From a virus, in IMG/VR virus record IMGVR_UViG_3300032053_000013, positions 58,286-122,285 of that record: a DNA stretch of 64,000 nt, one strand, 5' to 3'. The notes beneath the pieces were generated by a model. The model ran no database searches and had not been told where the DNA came from. It worked only from the letters and a program-made list of their open reading frames with translations. Numbering within the stretch: the stretch's first letter is position 1; every line of letters begins with the position of its first letter. Below are positions 2 through 54,194 of the stretch, piece by piece. The translations under genes and the position numbers were made by a program.

Positions 2-3000
2 ATGGTGGGAGTGCTCGACGAGACGAACGGCGGCACGGGGCAGTCCGCCCTCGCCACGGGCGACACCCTCTACGCCTCGGCGGCGAACACCTTCTCCAAG
101 CTCGGCATCGGGAACGCGGGGGACGTCCTGACCGTCGCTGGAGGGGTCCCTACGTGGCAGGCCACGGGTGCGGTCACCCTCCAGGGGGCCTACCAGGGGG
201 GGAACACCATCACCGTCACGGCTGCGGAGGGAGTTCCCACCATCTCGAACGCGGCGGACGCCACGAACACCCTCTCGGTAGCCCGCACCTTCGCCGGGGG
301 TGGGACCGGGGTTGATCTCAGCATGGGCGCGGCCACGACCGGGGTCGGGTTCAACGTCCTTGCCGCCGGTTCCGGCGACGCAGCTTTCATCAACAATACG
401 GGCACGGGTTCGGCCTTCACCGTTCAGGACGGCGGTGTGGACGTCGCGGACATCACCGCAGCCGGGGCTGTGACAATCACCCCGACGAGCGGCCAGACCG
501 CCACGATCACTACGGCAGGAGCCGGAACGCTGGACTTCAACTCCGCCGCAGGGATCACGATCGACGGCGTGGGAGTTTCCATCGACAACGCCAACTCTTC
601 CGCGAACTTCTCCAACGCTACGAACGGGGCAGCGCAGGATCTCACGATCGGCCTGACCGGGGCGACGAACTCCAGCATCCTCCTGAACTCGACCGGAACC
701 GGGGTGGACGCCATCGGGCTGACCACTTCGGCGGGAGGACTGGTCGCGAGCGTGAACGGAACCCTCACGGCGGACGCGGCCTCGCTCGACCTCGACGCTA
801 CGACCACGTCCCACTTCACCGTCACGGGGGCGGCTGCGGACGCGACGGTCTCCAGCGTGGGAGGCTCGGTGAACATGACGGCCTCTGAGGCCGCCGCCGA
901 TGCCATCAACATCACCGCTTCGGCAGGGGCGGGCGGAATCACCGCGTCCTCCGGGACAGGAGGCATCACCGAAACCACCACCGGAACGATGGACCTCAAT
1001 TCGGGGCCGTTCACCCTGGACGGTACGACGGGCAGCATCGACTTCACGGACACAGCAAACGTGACCGTCACGGGAGCCAGCAAGGATCTGACCGTCGCCA
1101 GCACCGGTGGGTCGGTGAATGTGACGGCTACCGAAGCCGCTGCCGACGCGATCAACATCACGGCCTCGGCGGGGGCCGGGGGGATCACGGCGTCCTCCGG
1201 GACGGGGGGCATCACCGAAACCACCACCGGAACGATGGACCTCAATTCGGGGCCGTTCACCTTGGACGGATCTACGGTCAGCATCGACGGAACGGATGCT
1301 GTCAACGTCACCGCCACGGGAGCGAGCAAGGACGTGACGGTCAATAGCGCGGGCGGATCGGTCAACATCACCGCGACCGAGAACGCCGTCGATGCCATCA
1401 AGATCCAATCGACGGTCGGGGGAACGGAGATCAACTCCGCTGGTCTGTTGAGCATGGATGCCGGGGCCAGCGCGGACATCGACGTCACCGGAAGCACCAC
1501 GATGACCTCCACCGTGGCGACCACGATCGAGGCGGTGGGGGGGAACCTTACCCTCGACAACCAGTTCGCTACCGGCAAGGTCATCCTCATGACGGGCACG
1601 AACACGGCGGCGACCGCCGTGGAGATCAAGAGCGACAACGGAACGGTTCAGGCCTCAGTCGATGGCACCGGGCAGGCCGACTTCAACGGCAACCTCGACG
1701 CCAACGCGGGTCTTGACGTCTCGGGGGGCAACCTTACCCTCGACAGCAATGACATCATCGTCAATACGAACAAGTTCAAGGTTGATGGGGCCACGGGGGA
1801 CACCTTGGTCGCCGGGAACCTGACGGTGCAGGGAACCATCACCGGCATCCAGACCGTGGACATGATCATCAAGGATAACTTCATCCAGGAGAACGTCGGA
1901 TACACTACGGCAGTAGCCTTGACCGGCGGTCTTGTAACCAACTACCTCCCCACGGCGACGGCCACTACCACGAACGGGGCGTTCATCGCCGGGTACGGGG
2001 GTGGATCCCCCGCCGATGCACAGGTCACGACGACCGGCTCGGGCACGTTCGCCTTGGGCGATATCATCCAGATCTCCGGTTCGACCGACGGCCTCAACGA
2101 CGGCTTCTTCGAGGTGTACTCCCACGGTGGAACCAACCTCTTGATCCGCACTGTTCCGGGAGCCCATGCGACCGTCGAGCCCTTCACGCGCACTCAGTTC
2201 ATCGCGATGCCGGCGCCTTCGCCCGCCGCCTCGATCACCAAGGTCACGGTCTCGGTCATCCGTGCCGGGACGGATGGGATCTGGGAGACCGGAAAGGGTG
2301 CGGTTACAGGGATCACCTACTCCGATCTTGCTACCGGCACCACGGTGACCTTGCAACAGGCGTACGACAACGGGAACACCATTACTCTCACGAACGCCGA
2401 TGGTAACCTGGCGATCACGACGACCTCCGCCGGGGGCGGGGCCGACCTTACGGTGGCCTCTGCGGCGGGAAGCTTCCTCGCAACGAACACGGGAGCCGCC
2501 AAGATGGACCTGGGCGCGGCGGCGAACACGGTGAACCTCAACGGTCCTCTCACGGCCACGGGGAATCAGACCATCAACCTCGGCAGCGGCCAGTTGACTA
2601 CCGCCGGGAACATGGACGTGAGCAACGGGATCGACATGACCGGCGGGGTGGGCCTGACCCTCAGCGGGGCCGGGACGGACCTGTTCGCCGCCGACAGCAC
2701 CGCGATCAAGCTCGGAAACACGGCTGTCGCACCGGATGCGACCATCGGATCCGACGGGACGGACATGGTCACCACGATGGCGGCTACGGCGAACTGCGTG
2801 GTGAAGACGGGCGACGCCGCCGGGGCCAAGTCGTTCATCGTCGCGGACAGCGGGGCGGTTCCGCAGATGACCGTCACCTCGGACGGCGACCTGACGATCA
2901 CGGGGACCGCGACGATTCCCACGGGGGAATCGCTCAAGGTCGGGGACGTCTTCCTGAACGAGTACGGGTCGGGCATGCAGGGGAAGAACACCAGCCTCGT

Positions 3001-3355
3001 GCCCATCGTCGCCGGGGACACGGTGAAGTTCAACGGCTCGGGGAATTTCGAGATCTCGGGAACCCCCGGCCTTACGGGCATGAGCGACATCCCGGTCGGC
3101 GTGGCCGCCGTGAACATCGGGGTCGGGTTGTGGGGCAACGTCTACTTCAGCGGGCCTGCGGTGCCCGTCAAGGACAACAGCGCCGGAGGCTTGCTCGCCG
3201 GTGGGTTCGCAATCTTCGACACGGCGGGAGGCGTCAAGAACATCGCGGCTGGGGCCGCCGCAGGGAAGGAACTCGTCTACGGTGGGGCGTGCTCGAAGAT
3301 CGCCGGGGGAATGGCGTACATCTCCCTCGTCATCCAGAAGATCGCCAAGGTGTAA
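2..3355 (+). CDS. Long tail fibre/adhesin-like protein (5' truncated by window)
   Basis: >1100 aa G/T/A/S-rich; TLQxAYxxGNTI motif twice (~173-211, ~2345-2383); internal repeats. Confidence 0.7.
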   Translation: MVGVLDETNGGTGQSALATGDTLYASAANTFSKLGIGNAGDVLTVAGGVPTWQATGAVTLQGAYQGGNTITVTAAEGVPTISNAADATNTLSVARTFAGGGTGVDLSMGAATTGVGFNVLAAGSGDAAFINNTGTGSAFTVQDGGVDVADITAAGAVTITPTSGQTATITTAGAGTLDFNSAAGITIDGVGVSIDNANSSANFSNATNGAAQDLTIGLTGATNSSILLNSTGTGVDAIGLTTSAGGLVASVNGTLTADAASLDLDATTTSHFTVTGAAADATVSSVGGSVNMTASEAAADAINITASAGAGGITASSGTGGITETTTGTMDLNSGPFTLDGTTGSIDFTDTANVTVTGASKDLTVASTGGSVNVTATEAAADAINITASAGAGGITASSGTGGITETTTGTMDLNSGPFTLDGSTVSIDGTDAVNVTATGASKDVTVNSAGGSVNITATENAVDAIKIQSTVGGTEINSAGLLSMDAGASADIDVTGSTTMTSTVATTIEAVGGNLTLDNQFATGKVILMTGTNTAATAVEIKSDNGTVQASVDGTGQADFNGNLDANAGLDVSGGNLTLDSNDIIVNTNKFKVDGATGDTLVAGNLTVQGTITGIQTVDMIIKDNFIQENVGYTTAVALTGGLVTNYLPTATATTTNGAFIAGYGGGSPADAQVTTTGSGTFALGDIIQISGSTDGLNDGFFEVYSHGGTNLLIRTVPGAHATVEPFTRTQFIAMPAPSPAASITKVTVSVIRAGTDGIWETGKGAVTGITYSDLATGTTVTLQQAYDNGNTITLTNADGNLAITTTSAGGGADLTVASAAGSFLATNTGAAKMDLGAAANTVNLNGPLTATGNQTINLGSGQLTTAGNMDVSNGIDMTGGVGLTLSGAGTDLFAADSTAIKLGNTAVAPDATIGSDGTDMVTTMAATANCVVKTGDAAGAKSFIVADSGAVPQMTVTSDGDLTITGTATIPTGESLKVGDVFLNEYGSGMQGKNTSLVPIVAGDTVKFNGSGNFEISGTPGLTGMSDIPVGVAAVNIGVGLWGNVYFSGPAVPVKDNSAGGLLAGGFAIFDTAGGVKNIAAGAAAGKELVYGGACSKIAGGMAYISLVIQKIAKV
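887..1269 (+). repeat. Intragenic duplication, 246-bp (82-codon) period
   Basis: EAAADAINITASAGAGGITASSGTGGITETTTGTMDLNSGPFTLDG encoded twice; 962-1015 identical to 1208-1261. Confidence 0.95.
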
Positions 3356-3375
3356 CAAGATACGGACCAGAGGCC

Positions 3376-3398
3376 GGGGGCTCGGTGAGCCCCCCTTT
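3376..3398 (+). terminator. Possible weak intrinsic terminator
   Basis: GGGGGCTC-GGT-GAGCCCCC hairpin then short T run after fibre gene. Confidence 0.4.
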
Positions 3399-3412
3399 CG
3401 GAGGACGGGTGA

Positions 3413-3946
3413 ATGTCCAAGCACACGAAGATGGCAAGGGCGGCGGTGCCGCCGCCGCAGTCCAGGGGAGTGGGTCCGAGGCTGGTTCCGCCGGGGACGG
3501 CTCCGGTGGCGGTGCGCCAGGAGATCGGGGAGATGGACGCGCTCAAGTACCGGCTCGCGATCCAGAAGGACAACAATCTCAAGGAGAAGCTGAAGAACAT
3601 CGAGGGGCAGAAGGCCCTTCTCGCCAAGGAAGAGGAGAACATCAAGCTGCGGATCGACCTTACCCGGATGGAGAACCGCAGGGACATCGGGCACCTGGAC
3701 ATCGGGCAGGGCGATCAGCTGGCGGACGAGAACGGGAGGTTCTACATCCTCCGCGCCCCGAGGCAGGGGTCGCTCCCCACGATCAAGATCCCGCCCAAGG
3801 CGGGGCCGACAGCGCCGGAGCCTCCTGCCGCGCCCCCGGCGGAGGTGCCCCCGGCGAATCCCGAGGGGGAGGAGGAAGAGGAGGGGGAAGAGGAGGACGG
3901 GGCCACGGAGGGGAGAGGCACGGAAGCCCCCCCGGAGAAAGAGTGA
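3413..3946 (+). CDS. Hypothetical protein (coiled coil, acidic Pro-rich C-terminus)
   Basis: GGAGG upstream, phage-like codon use, fills gap between hairpins. Confidence 0.75.
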   Translation: MSKHTKMARAAVPPPQSRGVGPRLVPPGTAPVAVRQEIGEMDALKYRLAIQKDNNLKEKLKNIEGQKALLAKEEENIKLRIDLTRMENRRDIGHLDIGQGDQLADENGRFYILRAPRQGSLPTIKIPPKAGPTAPEPPAAPPAEVPPANPEGEEEEEGEEEDGATEGRGTEAPPEKE

Positions 3947-41209: not shown

Positions 41210-42503
41210 CATGTGCCTGATGGCGCACGTGGTCCACGGGGGCCGGATAGGGGTCGTGGCCGACAGCGGGGTGCTCAGGGAGCACCTCTTCGACGAGGCC
41301 CAGCGGGTGTACGACCACGTGGTCGCCCACTACGCGAAGTACGGCAAGGTCCCGGACGCGGCGACGGTCGAGGGGGACACGAAGGTCGTGGTCCCGCCGC
41401 TATCCGACGTGAAGGAGCCGGTCGGATACTACGTGGACAAGGTGAAGGAGCGGGCCAGGGACAACCTCACCAAGGAGGGGGTCAAGAGCCAGCTCCGGGC
41501 GATGGAGGCCGGGAGGACGCAGGAGGCCATAGACGCAGCCTCGAAGCTCGCGGAGGACGTCACCCGCCTCAACCTCCAGTCGGACCCGGTCGACGACTGG
41601 ACGAAGCGGGCGGACGAGATGGAGGAGGAGTACGCCAAGGCGAAGGCAGCCGGTACCGGGATCCTCGGGGTGGAGACGCCGTGGCCCGGCCTCAACGATC
41701 TGACGCAGGGGGTGGCGGAGGGGGACTTCTGGGTCATGGTGGGAAGGCCCGGGGAGGGGAAGACCTGGTTCCTCGTGAAGATGGCGGTCCACGCGTGGAA
41801 GAGCGGGAAGGTCCCCCTGTTCATCTCGATGGAGATGGGCAAGAAGAAGATCAACCGCAGGATGGTCGCGGTCCACATGAAGCTCAACTACCACGACCTC
41901 CGGCGGGGGAAGCTCGGGATCGGGATCGAGGACGAGTACCACAAGGGGCTGAGGGAGCTGAAGGACTCCGCGAACCCGCTCTACGTCGCGTCGGCCAGGA
42001 ACGTGCGGAGGATCGGGGACATCGCGGTCCTCGTGCGGCTGTTCAAGCCGGACGTCGTCTTCCTCGACGGGCTCTACAAGATCAAGCCCCCGAACATCGG
42101 GGTGTCGAGCTACTGGGAGCGCATCCAGGCGATAGCCAACGACCTCCAGCTCCTCGTTGGGGACATCAATACGCCTATGGTGGCGACGACCCAGCTCCGG
42201 CGCGAGGGAGGGAAGAACATGAAGCGGAAGCGCGGGGCGTCTGTGGACATCGGGCTGGAGGACATCGCGTTCGCGGACGCCATAGGGCAGAACGCCGACG
42301 TGGTGATCGGGCTCGGGTCGACGAAGAGGATGAAGGAGGACCGCGAGGCCGTCCTCATGGTCGTGAAGAACAGGGAGGACGAGCGGGGGGCGTGGTCGGT
42401 GAAGTTCGACCCTTCGTTGGGGGACTTCGAGGAGATAGGGACCTACGAGCCGTCGTCTGGGCCGGACGAGGAGGGCGACGACTCCGGTGTGGAGAAGTAC
42501 TGA
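41196..42503 (+). CDS. dnaB: Replicative DNA helicase (DnaB family)
   Basis: GRPGEGKT, FLDGLY, TQLRR, IGQNADVV, VKNR. Confidence 0.92.
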   Translation: MPSLDMCLMAHVVHGGRIGVVADSGVLREHLFDEAQRVYDHVVAHYAKYGKVPDAATVEGDTKVVVPPLSDVKEPVGYYVDKVKERARDNLTKEGVKSQLRAMEAGRTQEAIDAASKLAEDVTRLNLQSDPVDDWTKRADEMEEEYAKAKAAGTGILGVETPWPGLNDLTQGVAEGDFWVMVGRPGEGKTWFLVKMAVHAWKSGKVPLFISMEMGKKKINRRMVAVHMKLNYHDLRRGKLGIGIEDEYHKGLRELKDSANPLYVASARNVRRIGDIAVLVRLFKPDVVFLDGLYKIKPPNIGVSSYWERIQAIANDLQLLVGDINTPMVATTQLRREGGKNMKRKRGASVDIGLEDIAFADAIGQNADVVIGLGSTKRMKEDREAVLMVVKNREDERGAWSVKFDPSLGDFEEIGTYEPSSGPDEEGDDSGVEKY

Positions 42504-43489
42504 TGAGAGCGGAGGCCGTGGTGAGGCTGGCCGAGCTGCTCGGCGTGAGGGCGGGGCCCCCGAGGGCCACCTACGTGCTGATGGAGTGCCCCCTCGCGCC
42601 GGTGACCCACGCGAAGGGGACGGACAACACGCCGAGCCTGTCCGTGCTCGTCAAGGATGGGGACAGGTCCGGGTGGATATGCCACTCCTGCGGGGCCAAG
42701 GGCACGCTGCCAGGCCTCGTCGTGCAGTGGGCGACCTACTTCGCCAAGGACCCGGGCCCGGCGCTCGACCTGATCGAGAAGGAGGAGAACTCCGTCGAGG
42801 CGATCTGCGGGAGGGTGGACCGGAAGTGGGACGAGAAGTGGAAGGAGCGGGACGCGGCGGCCGTCGCCTCCGTGGACTTCGAGGTGTTCTCCGAGGAGGA
42901 GATCGCGCCGTTCCTGGGTAGGGTGCCGCGCTACATCATAGACCGGGGGTTCGCCCTTCCGACGTGCAAGGCCTGGCAGCTCGGGTACGACAAGGAGTGG
43001 AGGGACCCCGACGGTTTCCCGCGGCCGCGCCTGACGATCCCGGTGCGGAGGAAGGACGGGAAGCTGGTGGGGATGGTGGGCCGGGCCCTGGACGACGAGA
43101 AGAAGGAGAAGTACTGGAACTACTGGAACTTCCACAAGTCGCGCCACCTGTTCGGGCATGACAAGACGGAGCAGGACAAGAAGATCGTGGCGGTCGTCGA
43201 GGGCTACTTCGACGTCATCAGGTGGTGGGAGTACGGGGTCAACGCGGTGGGGGTCATGGGGTCTCACCCGAGCGAGCAGCAGTACGCCCACCTCCTGTGC
43301 TACGAGGACGTCTTCCTCGCGCTCGACAAGGACGACTCCGGGTTCAGGGGGCGGGACGAGATTTCCAAGAGGCTCGTTGGCCGGGTCGGGGTGTACGACA
43401 CCGAGTTCCCCGGGGGGAAGACGGACCCGAAGCAGCTGACCAGGGAGGAGACCGAGTTCTGCCTACTGCACGCGAGGAAAATGATGTGA
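42503..43489 (+). CDS. dnaG: DNA primase (zinc finger plus Toprim)
   Basis: CPL..H..CHSC; IPV..GMVGR; VVEGYFD; ALDKDDSG. Confidence 0.88.
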   Translation: MRAEAVVRLAELLGVRAGPPRATYVLMECPLAPVTHAKGTDNTPSLSVLVKDGDRSGWICHSCGAKGTLPGLVVQWATYFAKDPGPALDLIEKEENSVEAICGRVDRKWDEKWKERDAAAVASVDFEVFSEEEIAPFLGRVPRYIIDRGFALPTCKAWQLGYDKEWRDPDGFPRPRLTIPVRRKDGKLVGMVGRALDDEKKEKYWNYWNFHKSRHLFGHDKTEQDKKIVAVVEGYFDVIRWWEYGVNAVGVMGSHPSEQQYAHLLCYEDVFLALDKDDSGFRGRDEISKRLVGRVGVYDTEFPGGKTDPKQLTREETEFCLLHARKMM

Positions 43490-43495
43490 GGGCGC

Positions 43496-43523
43496 GTGAC
43501 TAACAGCGGAAAACGGGTATAAT
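43496..43523 (+). promoter_or_regulatory. Variant promoter GTGACT-N16-TATAAT
   Basis: Same spacing; upstream of ssb. Confidence 0.7.
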
Positions 43524-43644
43524 AAGGCGAGTGCTGCGGCGCGCGGTCGCCAGGAAGGAGGTGCCCAGGCAGGACGCGTATCGAGTAGGTGCCACGAGGC
43601 ACGGACGAGATGTGAGACGATTGTGGTGAGAGACGAAAAGGAGC

Positions 43645-44466
43645 ATGAGCATGGGTAACGCATGGTTTGACACGGGAAAGGCCGCGGTGGACCGCGCCAA
43701 CCAGAAGTCCGGGACGGGCAAGGTCTCCCAGCGGTTCTACCTCAAGTCCGGCTCCGAGGCGACGATCATCTTCGTCGACGGCGACAACACCACCGAGGAG
43801 CCGATCGGGAACTTCAAGGAGCACACCTACGAGGCCTCCGACGGCAAGTTCCCCAACTTCTGCACCTGCGTCGGGCCCGCGAAGTGCCCGGTGTGCAAGG
43901 AGGGCCTGCGGCCCTACGACGCCTGGCCGATGACCATCGTCCAGCTCCGGCCAGGGTGGACGGGGCGGGACGGCAAGGAGCACAAGTTCGAGCGCAAGCT
44001 CCTGATCGCGAAGAAGGAGGCGATGCAGCGCATCCTCCGCCACGCCGCCCAGCGCAAGGGGCTGGTGGGCACGGTCTGGAACATCTTCCGCACGGGCGAC
44101 CGGGCCTACACCGTCGGCGACGACTGGCAGTTCGTCCAGAAGGTCGGGGGCGATGGCGTCCTCCTCCCCGCGCAGCGGCGCGCCGAGATGGGGAAGCCGT
44201 TCCACGTCTCCGTGATCGGGTCGGACGGCAAGGCGATCGAGATCGACGCCGAGATCCCGCGGGAGAACCTGGAGCCGTTCAACTACCGCGAGCTGCTCAA
44301 GCCCCGGACCTACGAGGAGCTGATGTCCGACGGCATCGACTTCGACGGGACGAAGCGGCGGGCGGCGTCCTGGGCGGACAAGGACAAGGACGGGGCCGGG
44401 GGGAGGGGGCGGAGGGGAGCGGCGCCGAGGTCCTCGGGGGACGCGGGCGAGGAGGTCCCCTACTAA
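43645..44466 (+). CDS. Phage single-stranded DNA-binding protein (gp32-like)
   Basis: FCTC..CPVC Zn site, acidic tail EEVPY, position between primase and polymerase. Confidence 0.75.
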   Translation: MSMGNAWFDTGKAAVDRANQKSGTGKVSQRFYLKSGSEATIIFVDGDNTTEEPIGNFKEHTYEASDGKFPNFCTCVGPAKCPVCKEGLRPYDAWPMTIVQLRPGWTGRDGKEHKFERKLLIAKKEAMQRILRHAAQRKGLVGTVWNIFRTGDRAYTVGDDWQFVQKVGGDGVLLPAQRRAEMGKPFHVSVIGSDGKAIEIDAEIPRENLEPFNYRELLKPRTYEELMSDGIDFDGTKRRAASWADKDKDGAGGRGRRGAAPRSSGDAGEEVPY

Positions 44467-44486
44467 CGGCCGCGTGGTCGGTACCG

Positions 44487-44554
44487 CCGCCGGACGGGGG
44501 CCCTGAAGGCGTTCTTCAGAAGTCCCTACGCACAAACCCCTGTCCGGCGGTTTT
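44487..44554 (+). other. 14-bp stem with internal hairpin and T tract (terminator or processing site)
   Basis: CCGCCGGACGGGGG pairs with CCCCTGTCCGGCGG; CTGAAG/CTTCAG hairpin inside; TTTT follows. Confidence 0.65.
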
Positions 44555-44681
44555 GTCGCCGTAGCTCAAGGCAGAGCCCCGGCCCGAGACCAAGGTGCTC
44601 GTCACCGATGGTTCATCTCCGGCTTGACCGGAGAATTACACGGGCCGGGAGATGGGGGCTCAAGACCCCCCGGCGACTCCA
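44555..44681 (+). ncRNA. tRNA-like RNA 1: full tRNA body, anticodon loop replaced by 54-nt two-hairpin insert
   Basis: GTCGCCG/CGGCGAC acceptor, T-CCA end, GCTC/GAGC D arm, CCCGGCCCG/CGGGCCGGG stem, GGGGG-CTCAAGA-CCCCC T arm. Confidence 0.75.
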
Positions 44682-44684
44682 GAT

Positions 44685-44754
44685 GGGCTGGTAGGCGGGG
44701 TGGAGATAACGGAGGCCGCTCATTCGAGGTATCCCGACTCGAGCCAGCCCACCA
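44685..44754 (+). ncRNA. tRNA-like RNA 2: acceptor stem plus two arms, no recognisable anticodon arm
   Basis: GGGCTGG/CCAGCCC acceptor with A-CCA; GGCGG/CCGCT and TTCGAG/CTCGAG hairpins. Confidence 0.6.
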
Positions 44755-44755
44755 T

Positions 44756-44832
44756 GCGCCCGTAGCTCAGCAGGATAGAGCGCCGGTTTCCTAAACCGGA
44801 GGCCGCGCGTCCGAGTCGCGCCGGGCGTGCCA
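44756..44832 (+). tRNA. tRNA-Arg(CCT)
   Basis: Cloverleaf: GCGCCCG/CGGGCGT, GCTC/GAGC, CCGGT-TTCCTAA-ACCGG, GCGCG-TCCGAGT-CGCGC, G-CCA. Confidence 0.9.
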
Positions 44833-47040
44833 ATGCCAGAGGACCGGAAGGTAGGCGACGCCAAGGGGAGGCTCCTCACCCTCCTGCGTAAGGGGGGCGG
44901 CGACGAGGGCCTCCGCTCGCTCCTGGAGTCGGACCCGTCCGCGGTCGAGGCCGCGGCCAGGCGAGACGAGGCGAGGAGGAAGAAGATGACCAGCATCGAC
45001 GACGCGGTGTCGGCGCTCAGGAAGGCGGAGTTCTTCTCGCTCGACCTGGAGACGGACGGGCCGTCGAAGGCCGAGGCCACGGACCCCCTCCGGGGGAGGA
45101 TCGTGGGGGTCTCGTTCGCGGCCGGGTTCGAGCCGGGGAAGTCGTGGTGGTTCCCGTTCGACGGGGGGGCGTCCGCTGGGGAGCAGGTCTTTTCCATGGT
45201 CGAGGTGTTCCGGGCGGTCCAGCCCGTCCTGCTCGACCCCGCCAAGACCCTCATCGGGTCCAACTGCAAGTTCGACATCATGTTCCTGAAGGCCAACGGG
45301 GTCGAGGTCCGCAACAGGCTGTTCGACACCGTGGTGGCCGACTGGATGATGGACGAGAACAACAAGAGGCACGGCCTGAAGGAGATCGTCAAGAGGGAGT
45401 TCGACGTCGACCTGGAGAAGTTCACGACGGCGTGGGCGTCGAGGGACCTCGTCCAGGGCAGCCGGTTCGCGGAGTACGCGGTGAACGACGCGAGGTACGC
45501 CTTCCGGGTGTGGGAGAGGGTCCACGCGCCGTTCCTGAACAAGGAGAGCAAGAGGGGGAAGGACGGGGGGGTGACCACCCCGGGGCACGAGAAGATCAGG
45601 AAGCTCTTCACCGAGGTCGAGATGGAGATCGTCAGGATCTTCATGGAGGCCGAGATGGAGGGCGTCTGCCTCGACCTGAAGTACATCGCGGCCCTCAAGG
45701 AGAGGATGGAGAAGGCGAAGGAGGAGGCGGCCCAGAGGGCCTTCGCGGCGGTCGGGCGCTCCTTCAAGATCAGCTCCCCCGAGGAGGTGAGCGTCATCCT
45801 CTTCGGGGCGCCGTCGGAGGACGCGCTCCGCGCCGCCATGGCGTCGAGGGACAAGAGGAAGCCCAAGGCGGCGAAGAGGGACCTGGTCGCGAAGTTCAAC
45901 ACCAAGGGCCTGTTCGAGGCCCCGAAGGGGCTCCTGCCGGTCCCGCTCGGACGGGACGGGCACCAGGCCATACCGGGGGACAACGGGTTCTACTCCACCG
46001 ACGACTCGATCCTGGCCGGGTACGACCACCCGTTCGTCAAGGCGCTGCTCGACTACCGGGCCGCGAGCCAGACGCTCAAGTTCTTCGTGTACGCCTACGT
46101 CGGCGGTGACCCGGAGAACGACAAGAAGATGGGGGTGGCCCGCGACGGGAGGGTGCACCCCGATTTCCATCAGGCCGGGACGATCGCCGGGCGGTTCACC
46201 TGCTCCGAGCCCAACCTCCAGCAGATCGACACCGAGAAGGGCCTGGTCAAGCCCATGTTCGTCCCTCCCCCCGGGCACAAGTTCGTGTGCGGAGACTTCA
46301 ACCAGCTCCAGTTCCGGCTGGCCGGGCACTACGCGAAGAGCTGGTTCGGGAAGTCGAACATCGCGGACGCCTACGCCCTGGGGTCCGACCTCCACGACAG
46401 GACGATGAGGGACCTCGGGTTCGACAAGACGATCCCGGACAAGAAGGCGGCCCGGAAGGAGGCCAAGGGGGTGAACTTCGCGTTCATCTTCGGGAGGGGG
46501 GCCAAGTCGTTCGCCGAGGCGAAGAGGCGCCCACCGGCCGAGGCCAACAAGTTCTACAACGGGTTCCACAAGTCGTACCCCGAGATCCGGTGGTGCTCGG
46601 ACAAGTGCCGCAGGGACCTCTGCGAGAAGGGCTACGTGGAGTCGATCCTCGGCAGGCGGCGCAACTACCCGCAGCACAAGGGCAAGGACCCCGACGCGTA
46701 CGAGAAGAAGGAGTCGGACGGCGGCCCCAGGAGCAACCTCTGGTGGGACGGGTGGGTGGCGTGGAACGCGGTGGTCCAGGGCGCTGAGTCCGACCTGGTG
46801 CGACTCGTCATGAGGAACATCTACCGCGAGATCCTGGAGCGGCGGAAGGCGGACCCGAGGTGGGACACGGTCAAGATGCTCATCCAGGTCCACGACGAGA
46901 TCGTCTACCAGGCACCCGACGAGATCGCCAAGGACGTGGCGGAACTGATGCGCGACAAGGCGGCGAACTCCCTGGCGCTGAAGGTACCCATGATCCTCGA
47001 CATCGGCATCGGGAGCACGTGGGAGGAGGCCAAGCAGTGA
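44833..47040 (+). CDS. polA: Family A DNA polymerase with 3'-5' exonuclease
   Basis: ExoI DLETD, ExoII NCKFD, ExoIII YAVND; motif A DFNQLQFR, B RKEAKGVNF, C VHDE. Confidence 0.95.
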   Translation: MPEDRKVGDAKGRLLTLLRKGGGDEGLRSLLESDPSAVEAAARRDEARRKKMTSIDDAVSALRKAEFFSLDLETDGPSKAEATDPLRGRIVGVSFAAGFEPGKSWWFPFDGGASAGEQVFSMVEVFRAVQPVLLDPAKTLIGSNCKFDIMFLKANGVEVRNRLFDTVVADWMMDENNKRHGLKEIVKREFDVDLEKFTTAWASRDLVQGSRFAEYAVNDARYAFRVWERVHAPFLNKESKRGKDGGVTTPGHEKIRKLFTEVEMEIVRIFMEAEMEGVCLDLKYIAALKERMEKAKEEAAQRAFAAVGRSFKISSPEEVSVILFGAPSEDALRAAMASRDKRKPKAAKRDLVAKFNTKGLFEAPKGLLPVPLGRDGHQAIPGDNGFYSTDDSILAGYDHPFVKALLDYRAASQTLKFFVYAYVGGDPENDKKMGVARDGRVHPDFHQAGTIAGRFTCSEPNLQQIDTEKGLVKPMFVPPPGHKFVCGDFNQLQFRLAGHYAKSWFGKSNIADAYALGSDLHDRTMRDLGFDKTIPDKKAARKEAKGVNFAFIFGRGAKSFAEAKRRPPAEANKFYNGFHKSYPEIRWCSDKCRRDLCEKGYVESILGRRRNYPQHKGKDPDAYEKKESDGGPRSNLWWDGWVAWNAVVQGAESDLVRLVMRNIYREILERRKADPRWDTVKMLIQVHDEIVYQAPDEIAKDVAELMRDKAANSLALKVPMILDIGIGSTWEEAKQ

Positions 47041-47489: not shown

Positions 47490-47991
47490 GCCTGACGATC
47501 CGGTCCTCGTGGCGTCGAGGATGGGAATGCTACAGGAGCCGTCGGAGGAGTTCCTCGATGCCTTCAGGGAGGGCAGCTCGGGGATGGTCGTCGACTGCGA
47601 GTTCTGCGGGCGGGTGTACTTCGCCACGCGGGATTGCGGGGACTACGACGAGGGGGAGCTGGAGGACCTCCGGGCGCGCGCCGCTAAGGAGCCCGACAAG
47701 TACATCGAGGTGGACTACTTCACCACGCGGGTCTCGGTCGACGGGAAGGGCTACGCCGATGGTTGCAGGTGCAACATGGTCCGGCGGTACGAGGACTGGA
47801 TCTGGGCGAACCGCAGGGGGATCCTCGCGTACCTCCAGTCCAGGACGGAGCGGAGGCTCAAGGAGGCGACGGAGGAGGCCGACTCGATGCGGGCCGTCAT
47901 GGCCGTGGTGAAGGGATCGGAAACGGAGGAGGAGGCGGAGAGGAAGGTGCTCCGCGACCTCCTGAGGAAGTACCCGAGGGAGGGGGGTTAG
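47479..47991 (+). CDS. Hypothetical protein (Cys motifs)
   Basis: CEFCGRVYF, CRC. Confidence 0.65.
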   Translation: MDSKPDDPVLVASRMGMLQEPSEEFLDAFREGSSGMVVDCEFCGRVYFATRDCGDYDEGELEDLRARAAKEPDKYIEVDYFTTRVSVDGKGYADGCRCNMVRRYEDWIWANRRGILAYLQSRTERRLKEATEEADSMRAVMAVVKGSETEEEAERKVLRDLLRKYPREGG

Positions 47992-47993
47992 GG

Positions 47994-49382
47994 ATGAGGA
48001 AGGTCGGTGCGTCGTACACGACGGACGAGGTTGGCGCGGCGGACCGCCTCGTCAAGAAGGACCTCGTCCTGAAGCAGCGGGGCGGCGAGGACTACGGGTT
48101 CGCCCCCGGCCAGAGGATCGTCCTCTACCGCGAGGGCCTGTTCGGCGTCGAGGTGCCGAGGGCCTACGGCCGGAGGGAGTTCGGGCCGCCGACCGTGGAC
48201 GAGACCGTCCAGGCGCCGATCCAGCCCTTCGCCTTCACCAGGGGGCTCCGGCCCGAGCAGCCGCCCCTCGTCGACGGATTCCTGGGCAGGGTCAGGGCGG
48301 GGAGGGGCACCGACGCCTACGGGGGGATCTTCAACGCCCCGTGCGGGACGGGCAAGACGGTCATGGCGGTCAAGATGCTGTCCGAGCTGGGGCAGGCCGC
48401 CGTCGTCCTCGTCCACACCGGGGCCCTGATGAAGCAGTGGCAGGACGAGCTCCTGAAGTTCACGGACCTGAGGCCGGACCAGGTCGGGCGCGTCCAGCAG
48501 GACGAGTGCGACTGGCGGGGGAAGTCCGTGGTGGTGGCGATGATCGAGTCCCTCTCACGCCGGGAGTACGAGCCGGACATGTACCGGGCGTTCGGCGTGG
48601 CGGTGTTCGACGAGGTCCACCGGCACGCGGCGGCGACCTGGCACAAGGTGATTTCCATGTTCCCCGCGAGGGTGCGGATCGGCCTGTCGGCTACCCCCCG
48701 CCGGTCGGACGGGCTGTGGAAGATCATCAAGATGCACGTGGGGGAGGTGCTGGCGGAGGGGAGCGTGGGGGGGACCGCGAGGGTCTTCCGGGTCATGACG
48801 GGCGTCGGCGTCCCGTCGGGCCGGTACATCTGGGGCGGGACGACCTACCTCGGGGCCCTCCTCAAGGCCCTCACCAAGGTCCCGGCGAGGAACGAGATGA
48901 TCGTGGGCGAGGTGGTCAAGGCCTTGGGCGCCGGGAGGCGGGTGCTGGTCCTCTCCGACCGCCTGGCGCACCTCGACGAGATCGAGCGCCTTTATAAGGA
49001 GAGGCTCCCCAAGGAGGAGAGGATGGCCGCGGAGATGTCGGGCGACACATCCGTCCTCGGCATCGGGCGGTACGTCGGGGGGACCTCCGACGCGGGCCTG
49101 GAGAGCGCCAGGAGGTGCAGGCTCCTGCTCGGGACGTTCCAGTACGCGAAGGAGGGCCTGGACGACCCCGGCCTCGACACCCTCATGCTCACGGTCCCCA
49201 AGGGCGACGTGGAGCAGCCGATAGGCCGGATCCTGCGCCAGGTGGAGGGGAAGAGGGAGCCCATCGTGATCGACTTCGTGGACGACAAGACCGAGCTGTG
49301 CGCCCAGTTCGCCGAGAAGAGGCTGCGGCAGTACGGGAGGCTCGGGTACGACGTCTCCGAGATCGCGGGGAAAACCCGTTGA
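47994..49382 (+). CDS. SF2 DExH helicase (ResIII/UvsW-like)
   Basis: APCGTGKT, FDEVH, LSATP, QPIGRILR. Confidence 0.92.
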   Translation: MRKVGASYTTDEVGAADRLVKKDLVLKQRGGEDYGFAPGQRIVLYREGLFGVEVPRAYGRREFGPPTVDETVQAPIQPFAFTRGLRPEQPPLVDGFLGRVRAGRGTDAYGGIFNAPCGTGKTVMAVKMLSELGQAAVVLVHTGALMKQWQDELLKFTDLRPDQVGRVQQDECDWRGKSVVVAMIESLSRREYEPDMYRAFGVAVFDEVHRHAAATWHKVISMFPARVRIGLSATPRRSDGLWKIIKMHVGEVLAEGSVGGTARVFRVMTGVGVPSGRYIWGGTTYLGALLKALTKVPARNEMIVGEVVKALGAGRRVLVLSDRLAHLDEIERLYKERLPKEERMAAEMSGDTSVLGIGRYVGGTSDAGLESARRCRLLLGTFQYAKEGLDDPGLDTLMLTVPKGDVEQPIGRILRQVEGKREPIVIDFVDDKTELCAQFAEKRLRQYGRLGYDVSEIAGKTR

Positions 49383-53217: not shown

Positions 53218-54194
53218 CGTATAACAAGGTGGAGGACCGGATGGGACTGAAGGACATCTTGGCGGCGGCCAGGAAGGCGCCGAGCGCGGTTCCCGAGTGG
53301 AGCCTCGGGGAGGTGCTGTGGGGCTACCTGGCCTCGCTGAGCGACGCGGAGGACGAGGGCCGGGAGCAGGGGTTCCACCCCTCCCAGCTCTTCGACTTCT
53401 GCCCGCGGCAGAGGGTCCTCGCCCACTTCTTCCCGAAGCCGGGCGAGGGCTACTTCTCGCCCGAGACGCGGACGCGGTTCGACTGGGGGACGGCGTGGCA
53501 CTGGTTCGTCCAGAACCACTACTTCGGCCCGATGGGGCTCCTGTGGGGGGACTGGCGGTGCAACCGGTGCGGGAAGGTGTGGAGGGACTCCCTCATGCCC
53601 CCGCCCGACATCGACTGCACCCCCAGCGCGGGCCCCCGCCGCGAGGACGAGGCCGTCCGCATCGTGCAGGCGGAGAGGGAGATCGAGGCGGGCAAGAGGC
53701 CCCGGCGCGGCGGGTACTGGACGTACCTGGAGAGGAGGGTCCGCACGGACGAGGGGATCGTCGGGCATGTCGACGGGATCCTCCAGATGCCGTGGGGCGA
53801 GAGGGCCCTCCTGGAGGTCAAGACGATGGACGGGAGGTGGTTCAAGACACTGTCCTCGCCCGACCCCAAGTACATGTTCCAGATCAGCGTGTACCTGTGG
53901 GCGACCGGCCTGGACCGATGCCTCCTGGCCTACTTCTCGAAGGACGCGGACCCGCAGAGGCCCAAGACCTTCTGGGTCAAGCGGGACGACGGGGTGGTCG
54001 AGGCCGTCAAGAGCAGGATCGCCCTCTACAAGAGGTCCTGGCCGGAGAAGCGGCTGTGCGTGGGAAACTGCGGGAGGGACACCGAGCGGGCCGCCGAGAA
54101 GTGCCCGCACCGCCTGGAGTGCTTCAGGCCCGACATCGAGGAGGCCGTCGAGAGGGAGCGCATACGGTATGCGCAGGAGGCGAAGAATTCCTGA
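53214..54194 (+). CDS. Cas4/AddB-like PD-(D/E)XK exonuclease
   Basis: PSQL..CPRQ, GHVDG, LEVKT, QISVY, C-terminal Cys cluster. Confidence 0.82.
   Translation: MTYNKVEDRMGLKDILAAARKAPSAVPEWSLGEVLWGYLASLSDAEDEGREQGFHPSQLFDFCPRQRVLAHFFPKPGEGYFSPETRTRFDWGTAWHWFVQNHYFGPMGLLWGDWRCNRCGKVWRDSLMPPPDIDCTPSAGPRREDEAVRIVQAEREIEAGKRPRRGGYWTYLERRVRTDEGIVGHVDGILQMPWGERALLEVKTMDGRWFKTLSSPDPKYMFQISVYLWATGLDRCLLAYFSKDADPQRPKTFWVKRDDGVVEAVKSRIALYKRSWPEKRLCVGNCGRDTERAAEKCPHRLECFRPDIEEAVERERIRYAQEAKNS
54158..54174. repeat. 17-bp palindrome GCGCATAC-G-GTATGCGC (copy 3)
   Basis: Contains the likely ATG (54169) of the next gene. Confidence 0.85.

Follow-up and report, generated by a model that had tools for sequence, protein, structure and literature searches.

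A 127-nt stretch of phage DNA lying directly in a tRNA array before a DNA polymerase gene has the shape of a tRNA with a branched insert in place of the anticodon loop, and the question is whether it is an interrupted tRNA, a dead tRNA gene, or a gene for an RNA that does not decode. The window, the whole stretch of DNA analysed, comprises 64,000 nucleotides (bases 58286-122285) of a linear IMG/VR virus record of 122,285 bp, with an estimated completeness of 82% and a record G+C content of 66.4%. The source is a phage of a bacterium and comes from sediment. The reading favoured here, to which we give an even chance, is that the element, named el1, encodes a phage RNA that derives from a tRNA gene, most likely one of the tRNA-Thr(UGU) type, and no longer decodes, while its tRNA body is maintained.

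The locus, the fold of el1 and the case for splicing

Upstream of the array are a DnaG-type primase fusion (41213-43489) and a 273-aa protein (43645-44466) whose sole family match was phrog_17226, a family with no assigned function. Downstream are a family A DNA polymerase (PolA; 44833-47040, plus strand) with a 3'-5' exonuclease domain (Pfam PF00476, 8.5e-64, and PF01612) and a ResIII/DEAD helicase (47763-49382). In related phages the gene order was the same, with DnaB, MerR and RecA added. The start codon of PolA was fixed by N-terminal alignment with these relatives; its identity to cultured phages was below 30%, none being close, and an alignment search of GTDB genomes found no relative of the PolA N-terminus. 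The C-terminus of the 273-aa protein consists of a Gly/Arg-rich stretch with an acidic tip, EEVPY (DEV-x-Y in the relatives L003 and L013), and this tail resembles the C-terminal tails of single-stranded DNA-binding proteins.

Between the 273-aa gene and PolA, a cassette of three units was found on the plus strand, namely el1 (44555-44681), a second unit, el2 (44685-44754), and tRNA-Arg(CCU) (44756-44832). The spacers are 3 and 1 nt, a U stands before each unit, and each unit ends in CCA. The tRNA-Arg, called by ARAGORN, is genuine, with an encoded CCA, and scored 61.6 bits against the Rfam tRNA model (RF00005). el2 contained a 7-bp acceptor stem (GGGCUGG/CCAGCCC), ACCA and a T-like hairpin with a 9-nt loop, and had no D arm; its fold reached a z of only -2.1 against shuffles, a loose alignment was obtained with tRNA-Ile and tRNA-Arg genes over their 3' halves, and judging from its sequence it is probably a degenerate tRNA kept in the array. 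The T loop UCCGA, with C for the near-universal U55, was seen in genuine tRNAs of this group, in tRNA-Arg(CCU) of the window (44805-44811) and in tRNA-Val(UAC) of relative L007 (2337-2343).

The el1 acceptor stem (44555-61/44671-77) is made of 7 Watson-Crick pairs and the D arm (44564-77) reads GCUC-AAGGCA-GAGC. A 9-bp stem follows, with the strands 44578-86 (CCCGGCCCG) and 44641-49 (CGGGCCGGG). In its register C44578 is position 26, the anticodon stem 27-31/39-43 corresponds to 44579-83/44644-48, and there are three further inner pairs; since the outermost pair is 26-44, the canonical anticodon stem has been extended by 3 pairs and not replaced. Inside this stem lies an insert of 54 nt that forms a three-way junction and consists, in order, of one A, hairpin 1 (44588-44613; base GACCA/UGGUU, a 1x2 internal loop and the tip GGUG-CUCGU-CACC), CA, hairpin 2 (44616-44634; UCUCCGG-CUUGA-CCGGAGA) and the single-stranded AUUACA (44635-44640). 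The variable loop has 5 nt, the T arm (44654-44670) reads GGGGG-CUCAAGA-CCCCC, and the 3' end carries U73 (44678) and an encoded CCA (44679-81). The T loop, having C at position 54, is not fully canonical. RNAfold gave -68.6 kcal/mol, with the structure described being both the minimum free energy and the centroid structure, while 200 dinucleotide shuffles gave -48.6 +/- 4.0 kcal/mol (z -5.0) and none of the 200 was as stable. The coordinates, arms, hairpins and U discriminator given in a preliminary description of this DNA were all confirmed in the sequence and in the RNAfold structure. Its statement that the arms are intact and that the anticodon stem has 9 bp stood for the arms and the stem, with the qualifications that C54 departs from a canonical T loop and that the stem is the canonical one with 3 added pairs and 26-44.

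Compared with canonical phage tRNAs (RF00005), el1 has no anticodon loop, its 9-bp stem being closed by the 54-nt junction. Apart from C54, the acceptor, D and T arms and the core nucleotides of a tRNA are present, the latter being U8, A9, G10, A14, A15-U48, A21, G46, the GG of the D loop, G53-C61, C56 and A58. A 5-bp anticodon stem with a 7-nt loop, U33 and a purine at 37 is lacking, even after one excision. The element was missed by default ARAGORN and by the Rfam tRNA model, which gave no match to 44555-44681 in a 501-nt stretch at the 29-bit gathering score or at E up to 10. In intron mode, ARAGORN forced el1 into a 'tRNA-Cys(ACA)' with a 51-nt intron and C at position 37.

Rfam, ARAGORN, excision and structure checks bore out the earlier view that the locus is neither a group I intron, nor a bulge-helix-bulge intron, nor a tmRNA. 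The insert has 54 nt against about 200 nt or more for a P3-P9 core, and no group I match was obtained in Rfam at E up to 10. ARAGORN reported no tmRNA; pair 3-70 is C3-G70 and not G3.U70, the D stem is intact, and there is no open reading frame. The minimum free energy and centroid structures do not contain two 3-nt bulges 4 bp apart, the sole internal loop being 1x2 at one end of a 4-bp helix. A Ro/Y-RNA module was also rejected, the phage record having no TROVE/Ro protein gene (PF05731; positive control worked) and the insert no GNCGAAN0-1G motif. The YrlA model (RF02553), for which 69 bits would be required, did not match el1 and gave only a 14.5-bit match elsewhere, at 44702-44791. The Rfam mascRNA model (RF01684) gave a weak match at 44601-44677 (22.6 bits, E 0.034, gathering score 42.5) in which the insert is paired differently, with the 3' strand of the acceptor; the likeness of 44601-15 to the 5' end of el1 itself (10/15) that underlies this match was judged to be chance. 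As for a genome repeat or small mobile element, nothing of the insert beyond chance 9-15-mers recurs in this genome.

Whether splicing out the insert could produce a tRNA able to decode was addressed by enumerating every single excision that leaves a 7-nt loop on a 5-bp stem, together with position 26 and a variable loop of 4-5 nt. This strict geometric enumeration was used because ARAGORN on simulated excisions was too permissive (370 calls, many identities). No canonical-register single excision gave U33, so that no single excision is computed to restore a canonical arm. The only loop with both U33 and a purine at 37 (A37) arises by excision of 44587-44635, which leaves G-U-UAC-A-C. In its favour, UUACA is unchanged in the diverged copy described below, and tRNA-Val(UAC) is present in the same slot of related phages. 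However, the UAC loop would sit on an 8-bp anticodon stem, G32-C38 could pair, and U73 would not be expected to fit valine identity in E. coli. To the absence of a bulge-helix-bulge is added that no Rfam intron or ribozyme matched el1 at E 10. The tRNA splicing endonuclease (PF01974), RtcB (PF01139) and RNA ligase (PF09414) families were absent from the 122-kb record, in which the positive controls worked and which is 82% complete. We know of no protein-dependent tRNA splicing in bacteria.

A precedent is found in the Lak megaphages, whose tRNA genes are reported to carry 'enigmatic introns', one of them in a tRNA-Thr(UGU) (Devoto et al. 2019; PMC6784885). Like that of el1, the Lak inserts are short, near the anticodon and of no known intron class. 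In the Lak phages, alleles with and without the insert occur and its removal restores a normal tRNA, whereas for el1 an insert-free allele was not seen among contigs of four sediment runs and no excision restores a canonical arm. It is owing to the Lak precedent that the intron reading stays alive, and we regard it as very unlikely.

Ancestry and the slot in related phages

The first 24 nt of el1 were identical at 21 of 24 positions to the tRNA-Thr(UGU) genes of relatives L004 (2843-2917) and L007 (2846-2918), and a short D loop, the UCAAG core of the T loop and U73 are common to all. The acceptor pairs 2-71 and 7-66 of el1 differ from those of tRNA-Thr(UGU) on both sides, with pairing retained. 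With these relatives' genes el1 also shares the slot, the architecture of the acceptor, D and T arms, the CCA, and a place in a tight array with a real tRNA. These likenesses are suggestive of descent from a tRNA-Thr(UGU)-type gene.

The relatives considered form a clade defined by PolA homologues, and the slot is the interval between the 25x-27x-aa gene and PolA. Its contents differ widely. In L021 and L022 (PolA identity 43%) the slot is empty and the flanking genes nearly abut, while L004-L008 (about 50%) contained 5-7 normal tRNAs (Asn, Val, Ile, Gly, Thr, Thr and Met). L011 has a tRNA-Met, a 210-nt gap and a tRNA-Gly. L010 (2139-2991) has a tRNA 5' half cut at the anticodon arm, a TTGACA/TAATAT promoter, an HNH endonuclease gene (phrog_1271, 2.8e-18) and a replacement tRNA-Gly, which is whole and overlaps the end of the HNH gene. 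L002 (75%; 2641-3829) has a tRNA-Met, an HNH_2 gene on the other strand, a tRNA-Met-like acceptor/T minihelix and a tRNA-Ile. In L003, L009 and L013 (about 64-71%) there is a tRNA whose anticodon loop is odd, and with it a leader of about 200 nt that is conserved. The nearest PolA relatives, P0001 (99%), P0003 (67%) and P0005 (66%), have a similar gap of 370-390 nt in the slot.

The odd-loop tRNAs (L003:113-188, L009:1-60 and L013:2166-2238) are of two kinds. In one, a class-I body carries the loop CUUAAAA, whose anticodon UAA is nominally that of Leu; the other resembles tRNA-Val(UAC) and has a 6-nt loop, UUACAA. L009 also contained, at 62-208, a 147-nt tRNA-shaped RNA with an acceptor stem, D and T arms and an anticodon-like arm with the loop AGAAAUA; a further 72 nt or so are structured, CCA is not encoded, and the fold z is -3.0. 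The leader before PolA is conserved among L003 (190-445), L009 (210-468) and L013 (2240-2490) and is absent from the window. A 1-nt indel within its ATG-led stretch indicates that the leader is probably RNA or regulatory sequence and not a small gene.

Slot contents that range from 0 to 7 tRNAs, with HNH genes and fragments, point to a hot spot of tRNA gain and loss and of endonuclease-driven rearrangement, in which degenerate tRNA pieces are common. The preliminary description missed this context, that is, the tRNA-array hot spot, the degenerate neighbouring unit and the homing-endonuclease traffic in the relatives. el2 and the relatives' fragments are plainly degenerate leftovers from the turnover of tRNA genes, and so el1 could belong with them. 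It would then be a dead relic, a Thr-type tRNA inactivated by a DNA insertion in its anticodon loop (for example the scar of a homing endonuclease or another mobile element), decaying and without a function of its own. Given the neighbourhood, with el2 degenerate next door and the broken units of L010 and L002 beside HNH and HNH_2 genes, a plain relic is a serious rival. Against decay stand the perfect stems of el1, which comprise all four tRNA stems and the 9-bp stem, and further evidence on both sides comes from a second copy of the element.

A diverged copy from a sediment metagenome

The el1 stretch was present in about ten sediment metagenome runs. For the stretch, 24 sequencing runs were listed, all of DNA and mostly from sediment metagenomes, with 0 RNA runs. 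Contigs of four sediment runs were compared over 44400-44900. The insert was carried by contigs of all four, and no joint across it was observed, contigs being prone to drop rare variants. One of the runs, X10, yielded a contig of 311 nt; aligned to 44554-44719, it differs by 20 substitutions and 8 gap letters (about 85% identity). Substitutions within about 30-31 nt of the aligned ends could not be read, and 3 of the 20 were unplaced.

Outside the T loop, 29 positions of the body are readable (44646-58 and 44666-81), and 0 changes were found in them. These positions take in the outer part of the long stem on its 3' side, the variable loop, both strands of the T stem, and the 3' strand of the acceptor together with UCCA. 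In the T loop, now UCCAAUU, positions 54, 55, 59 and 60 had changed and C56, A57 and A58 were kept; the loop departs from UUC in el1 and in the copy alike. The D loop gained one A that interrupts its GG. By comparison, the 61-nt region 44585-44645 had 13 substitutions and 7 indel letters.

In the long stem, C44585-G44642 became G-C, G44586-C44641 became G-U, and A44587>U added a pair with A44640; C44645>A disrupts a pair of the stem, unless its unread partner G44582 changed as well. The base of hairpin 1 was unchanged, and its tip went from 4 bp with the loop CUCGU to a 7-bp helix with the loop CAUG (+3 bp), the 5' strand having gained an insertion and the 3' side having changed to match. Hairpin 2 lost its outer pair and was left with CUC/GAG and GG/CC around a CUUG loop, with an internal loop, 64% of cells pairing in the reference register. 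AUUACA was unchanged. A reconstructed X10 copy, with reference letters in the unread 5' part, folded into the same architecture at -62.4 kcal/mol. Covariation from the two sequences was non-significant, with 1 double change, a number reached by 239 of 500 shuffles.

If the body had evolved at the rate of the insert (about 0.21 substitutions), the probability of 29 unchanged positions would be about 0.001 by our own arithmetic. The tRNA body and the helicity of the limb thus appear to have been under selection after the insert arose, and the sequence of the insert does not. This argues against a decaying relic: the readable body stems are unchanged while the insert is about 21% different with indels in addition, and where the long stem and hairpin 1 did change, pairs were preserved or gained. 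The erosion of hairpin 2 and of the D-loop GG in the same copy speaks for it.

The same pattern bears on the preliminary description, which had proposed a tRNA scaffold displaying a structured effector domain. The tRNA body and a structured insert that is not intron-like are found as proposed, whereas the emphasis on the effector does not hold, the scaffold being kept and the displayed part drifting; in the sole diverged copy the insert is the fastest-evolving part and the readable body stems are unchanged. The long stem and hairpin 1 are kept, the insert sequence drifts, and hairpin 2 is weakened. On this comparison of two sequences, a structural cap that evolves fast is a likelier description of the insert than a conserved effector.

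Searches for other homologues showed a narrow distribution. In blastn (distant mode) of 44540-44840 against 50,697 phage records, only the tRNA-Arg was matched. Three patterns searched in IMG/VR (D arm; T arm and acceptor; degenerate T arm) and one el1 pattern searched in JGI metagenomes gave 0 matches. A gapped pattern for hairpin 1 gave 7 IMG/VR matches, which were AT-rich, apparently coding DNA with no tRNA shape and were dismissed as chance. A covariance model built from the reference el1 and the reconstructed X10 copy found no copies of el1 in the L002 record, the L004 genome, L003, L009, L010, L011 or L022, where it matched only ordinary tRNAs and the tRNA 5' half of L010. A 14-bit match of the model at 53312-53395 of the window was rejected, as it folds no better than shuffles. 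Homologues of el1 were thus found only in one close lineage, which favours a relic and weakens the case for el1. Weighing the hot spot, the erosion and this distribution against the stems and the unchanged body, we consider a dead relic unlikely.

Processing, possible roles and known tRNA-like RNAs

Upstream of el1 a long hairpin was found (44485-44554, plus strand), with a 14-bp stem, a 36-nt loop that holds a small hairpin, and a following UUUU that ends at -1 of el1 (fold z -3.6). It is either a weak terminator or a 3'-end protector of the upstream 273-aa gene. The X10 copy is unlike the reference upstream of 44554, and the hairpin is therefore not conserved there. Within 43500-45200 no sigma-70-like promoter and no consensus terminator were found, the long hairpin not being called; given this, read-through transcription with RNase P cutting would be the simplest model. 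At the other end of the cassette, the PolA ATG (44833) directly follows the CCA of tRNA-Arg, and PolA starts 0-1 nt after a tRNA 3' CCA in the window (44829-44835), in L004 (2997-3003) and in L007 (2997-3003), so that tRNA 3' processing would create a leaderless or near-leaderless polymerase mRNA. One X10 contig joins 44769 to 44857, with 87 nt skipped or replaced that comprise most of tRNA-Arg and the first PolA codons, which indicates that the last cassette unit differs between strains.

For the transcription, processing, stability and partner of el1 we infer the following course. The anticodon loop of a Thr-type array gene would have been replaced by the 54-nt two-hairpin module on a 9-bp stem. 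The cassette would be transcribed by read-through from the replication genes, and RNase P would cut at G44555, the U at -1 and the encoded CCA being as in both following units. The RNase P cut of the next unit, 3 nt downstream, together with exonuclease trimming, would produce the CCA end of el1. This would yield a stable RNA of 127 nt in which the acceptor/T stack and the elbow are intact and the anticodon end is closed and of no use to the ribosome for decoding; selection would act on the tRNA body and the helical limb and not on the insert sequence. el1 would then act through its tRNA-like body, either as an RNase P signal that separates the upstream mRNA from the PolA mRNA or as a mimic that occupies a tRNA-binding protein.

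A narrower account holds that el1 is cis punctuation only, the tRNA shape serving as an RNase P cleavage signal and the excised RNA being waste. Several features of the locus fit it: the hairpin and UUUU that end at -1 of el1 would leave the upstream mRNA with a hairpin-protected 3' end, there is no promoter consensus between the upstream gene and PolA, the polymerase ATG abuts a tRNA 3' end here as in L004 and L007, and the well-kept parts are only those that RNase P needs. The logic is that of mascRNA at the MALAT1 3' end, to which the Rfam match is weak. On the other hand, RNase P needs only an acceptor/T minihelix, which leaves the intact D arm, the Levitt pair and the 9-bp stem unexplained; tRNA-Arg is already a cleavage site before PolA; and the upstream hairpin is not conserved in X10. 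We hold punctuation alone to be quite improbable. A trans-acting alternative, given a similarly small chance, is that el1, perhaps with the whole cassette, is a tRNA mimic that occupies a host protein which recognises the body of tRNAs, such as a defence enzyme that cleaves tRNAs or modifies their ends; the capped limb would make it uncleavable and unreadable by the ribosome. A cis role as RNase P signal is economical and fits the context but needs no D arm or 9-bp limb; a trans role as mimic or decoy would be the more novel of the two.

Among known RNAs, the RNAC and RNAD of phage T4 (species 1 and 2 RNAs) are small stable RNAs in a tRNA cluster that are co-processed and whose roles are unknown (PMC3014915). 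Like el1, they are small RNAs within a phage tRNA gene cluster, but T4 is a distant phage of different host range. The YrlA RNAs are bacterial Y RNAs, tRNA mimics bound by Rsr/Ro60, and that of M. smegmatis is cut by RNase P and receives CCA (Chen et al. 2014; PMC4201824). They resemble el1 in being non-decoding, in their tRNA-like D, T and acceptor features, and in being substrates of tRNA enzymes, which for el1 is predicted. They differ in that the ends of YrlA lie in the Ro-binding stem and its acceptor end is closed, whereas el1 has no YrlA model match, Ro motif or TROVE gene. The mascRNA is likewise a non-decoding tRNA-like fold and an RNase P substrate (for el1, predicted), but it is a eukaryotic family and the el1 score is far below the gathering score. 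No CCA-adding enzyme (PF01743) was found in the phage record, where the positive control worked. Candidates that resemble tRNAs are mentioned in a survey from 2023 that covered about 10,000 candidate structured RNAs of viruses, and the word 'anticodon' is absent from the main text of that survey (PMC10690425).

Phage tRNA arrays are usually read as codon-supply genes only. If el1 is made and kept, a tRNA gene would have been repurposed without losing the handles by which RNase P, enzymes of the CCA end and further proteins that bind tRNA engage it. Annotators should be aware that default tRNA finders miss genes of this kind. The finding bears on how phages may respond to hosts that attack tRNA, and on the cutting of polycistronic phage messages, here with a polymerase mRNA whose first base would lie right behind the 3' end of a tRNA.
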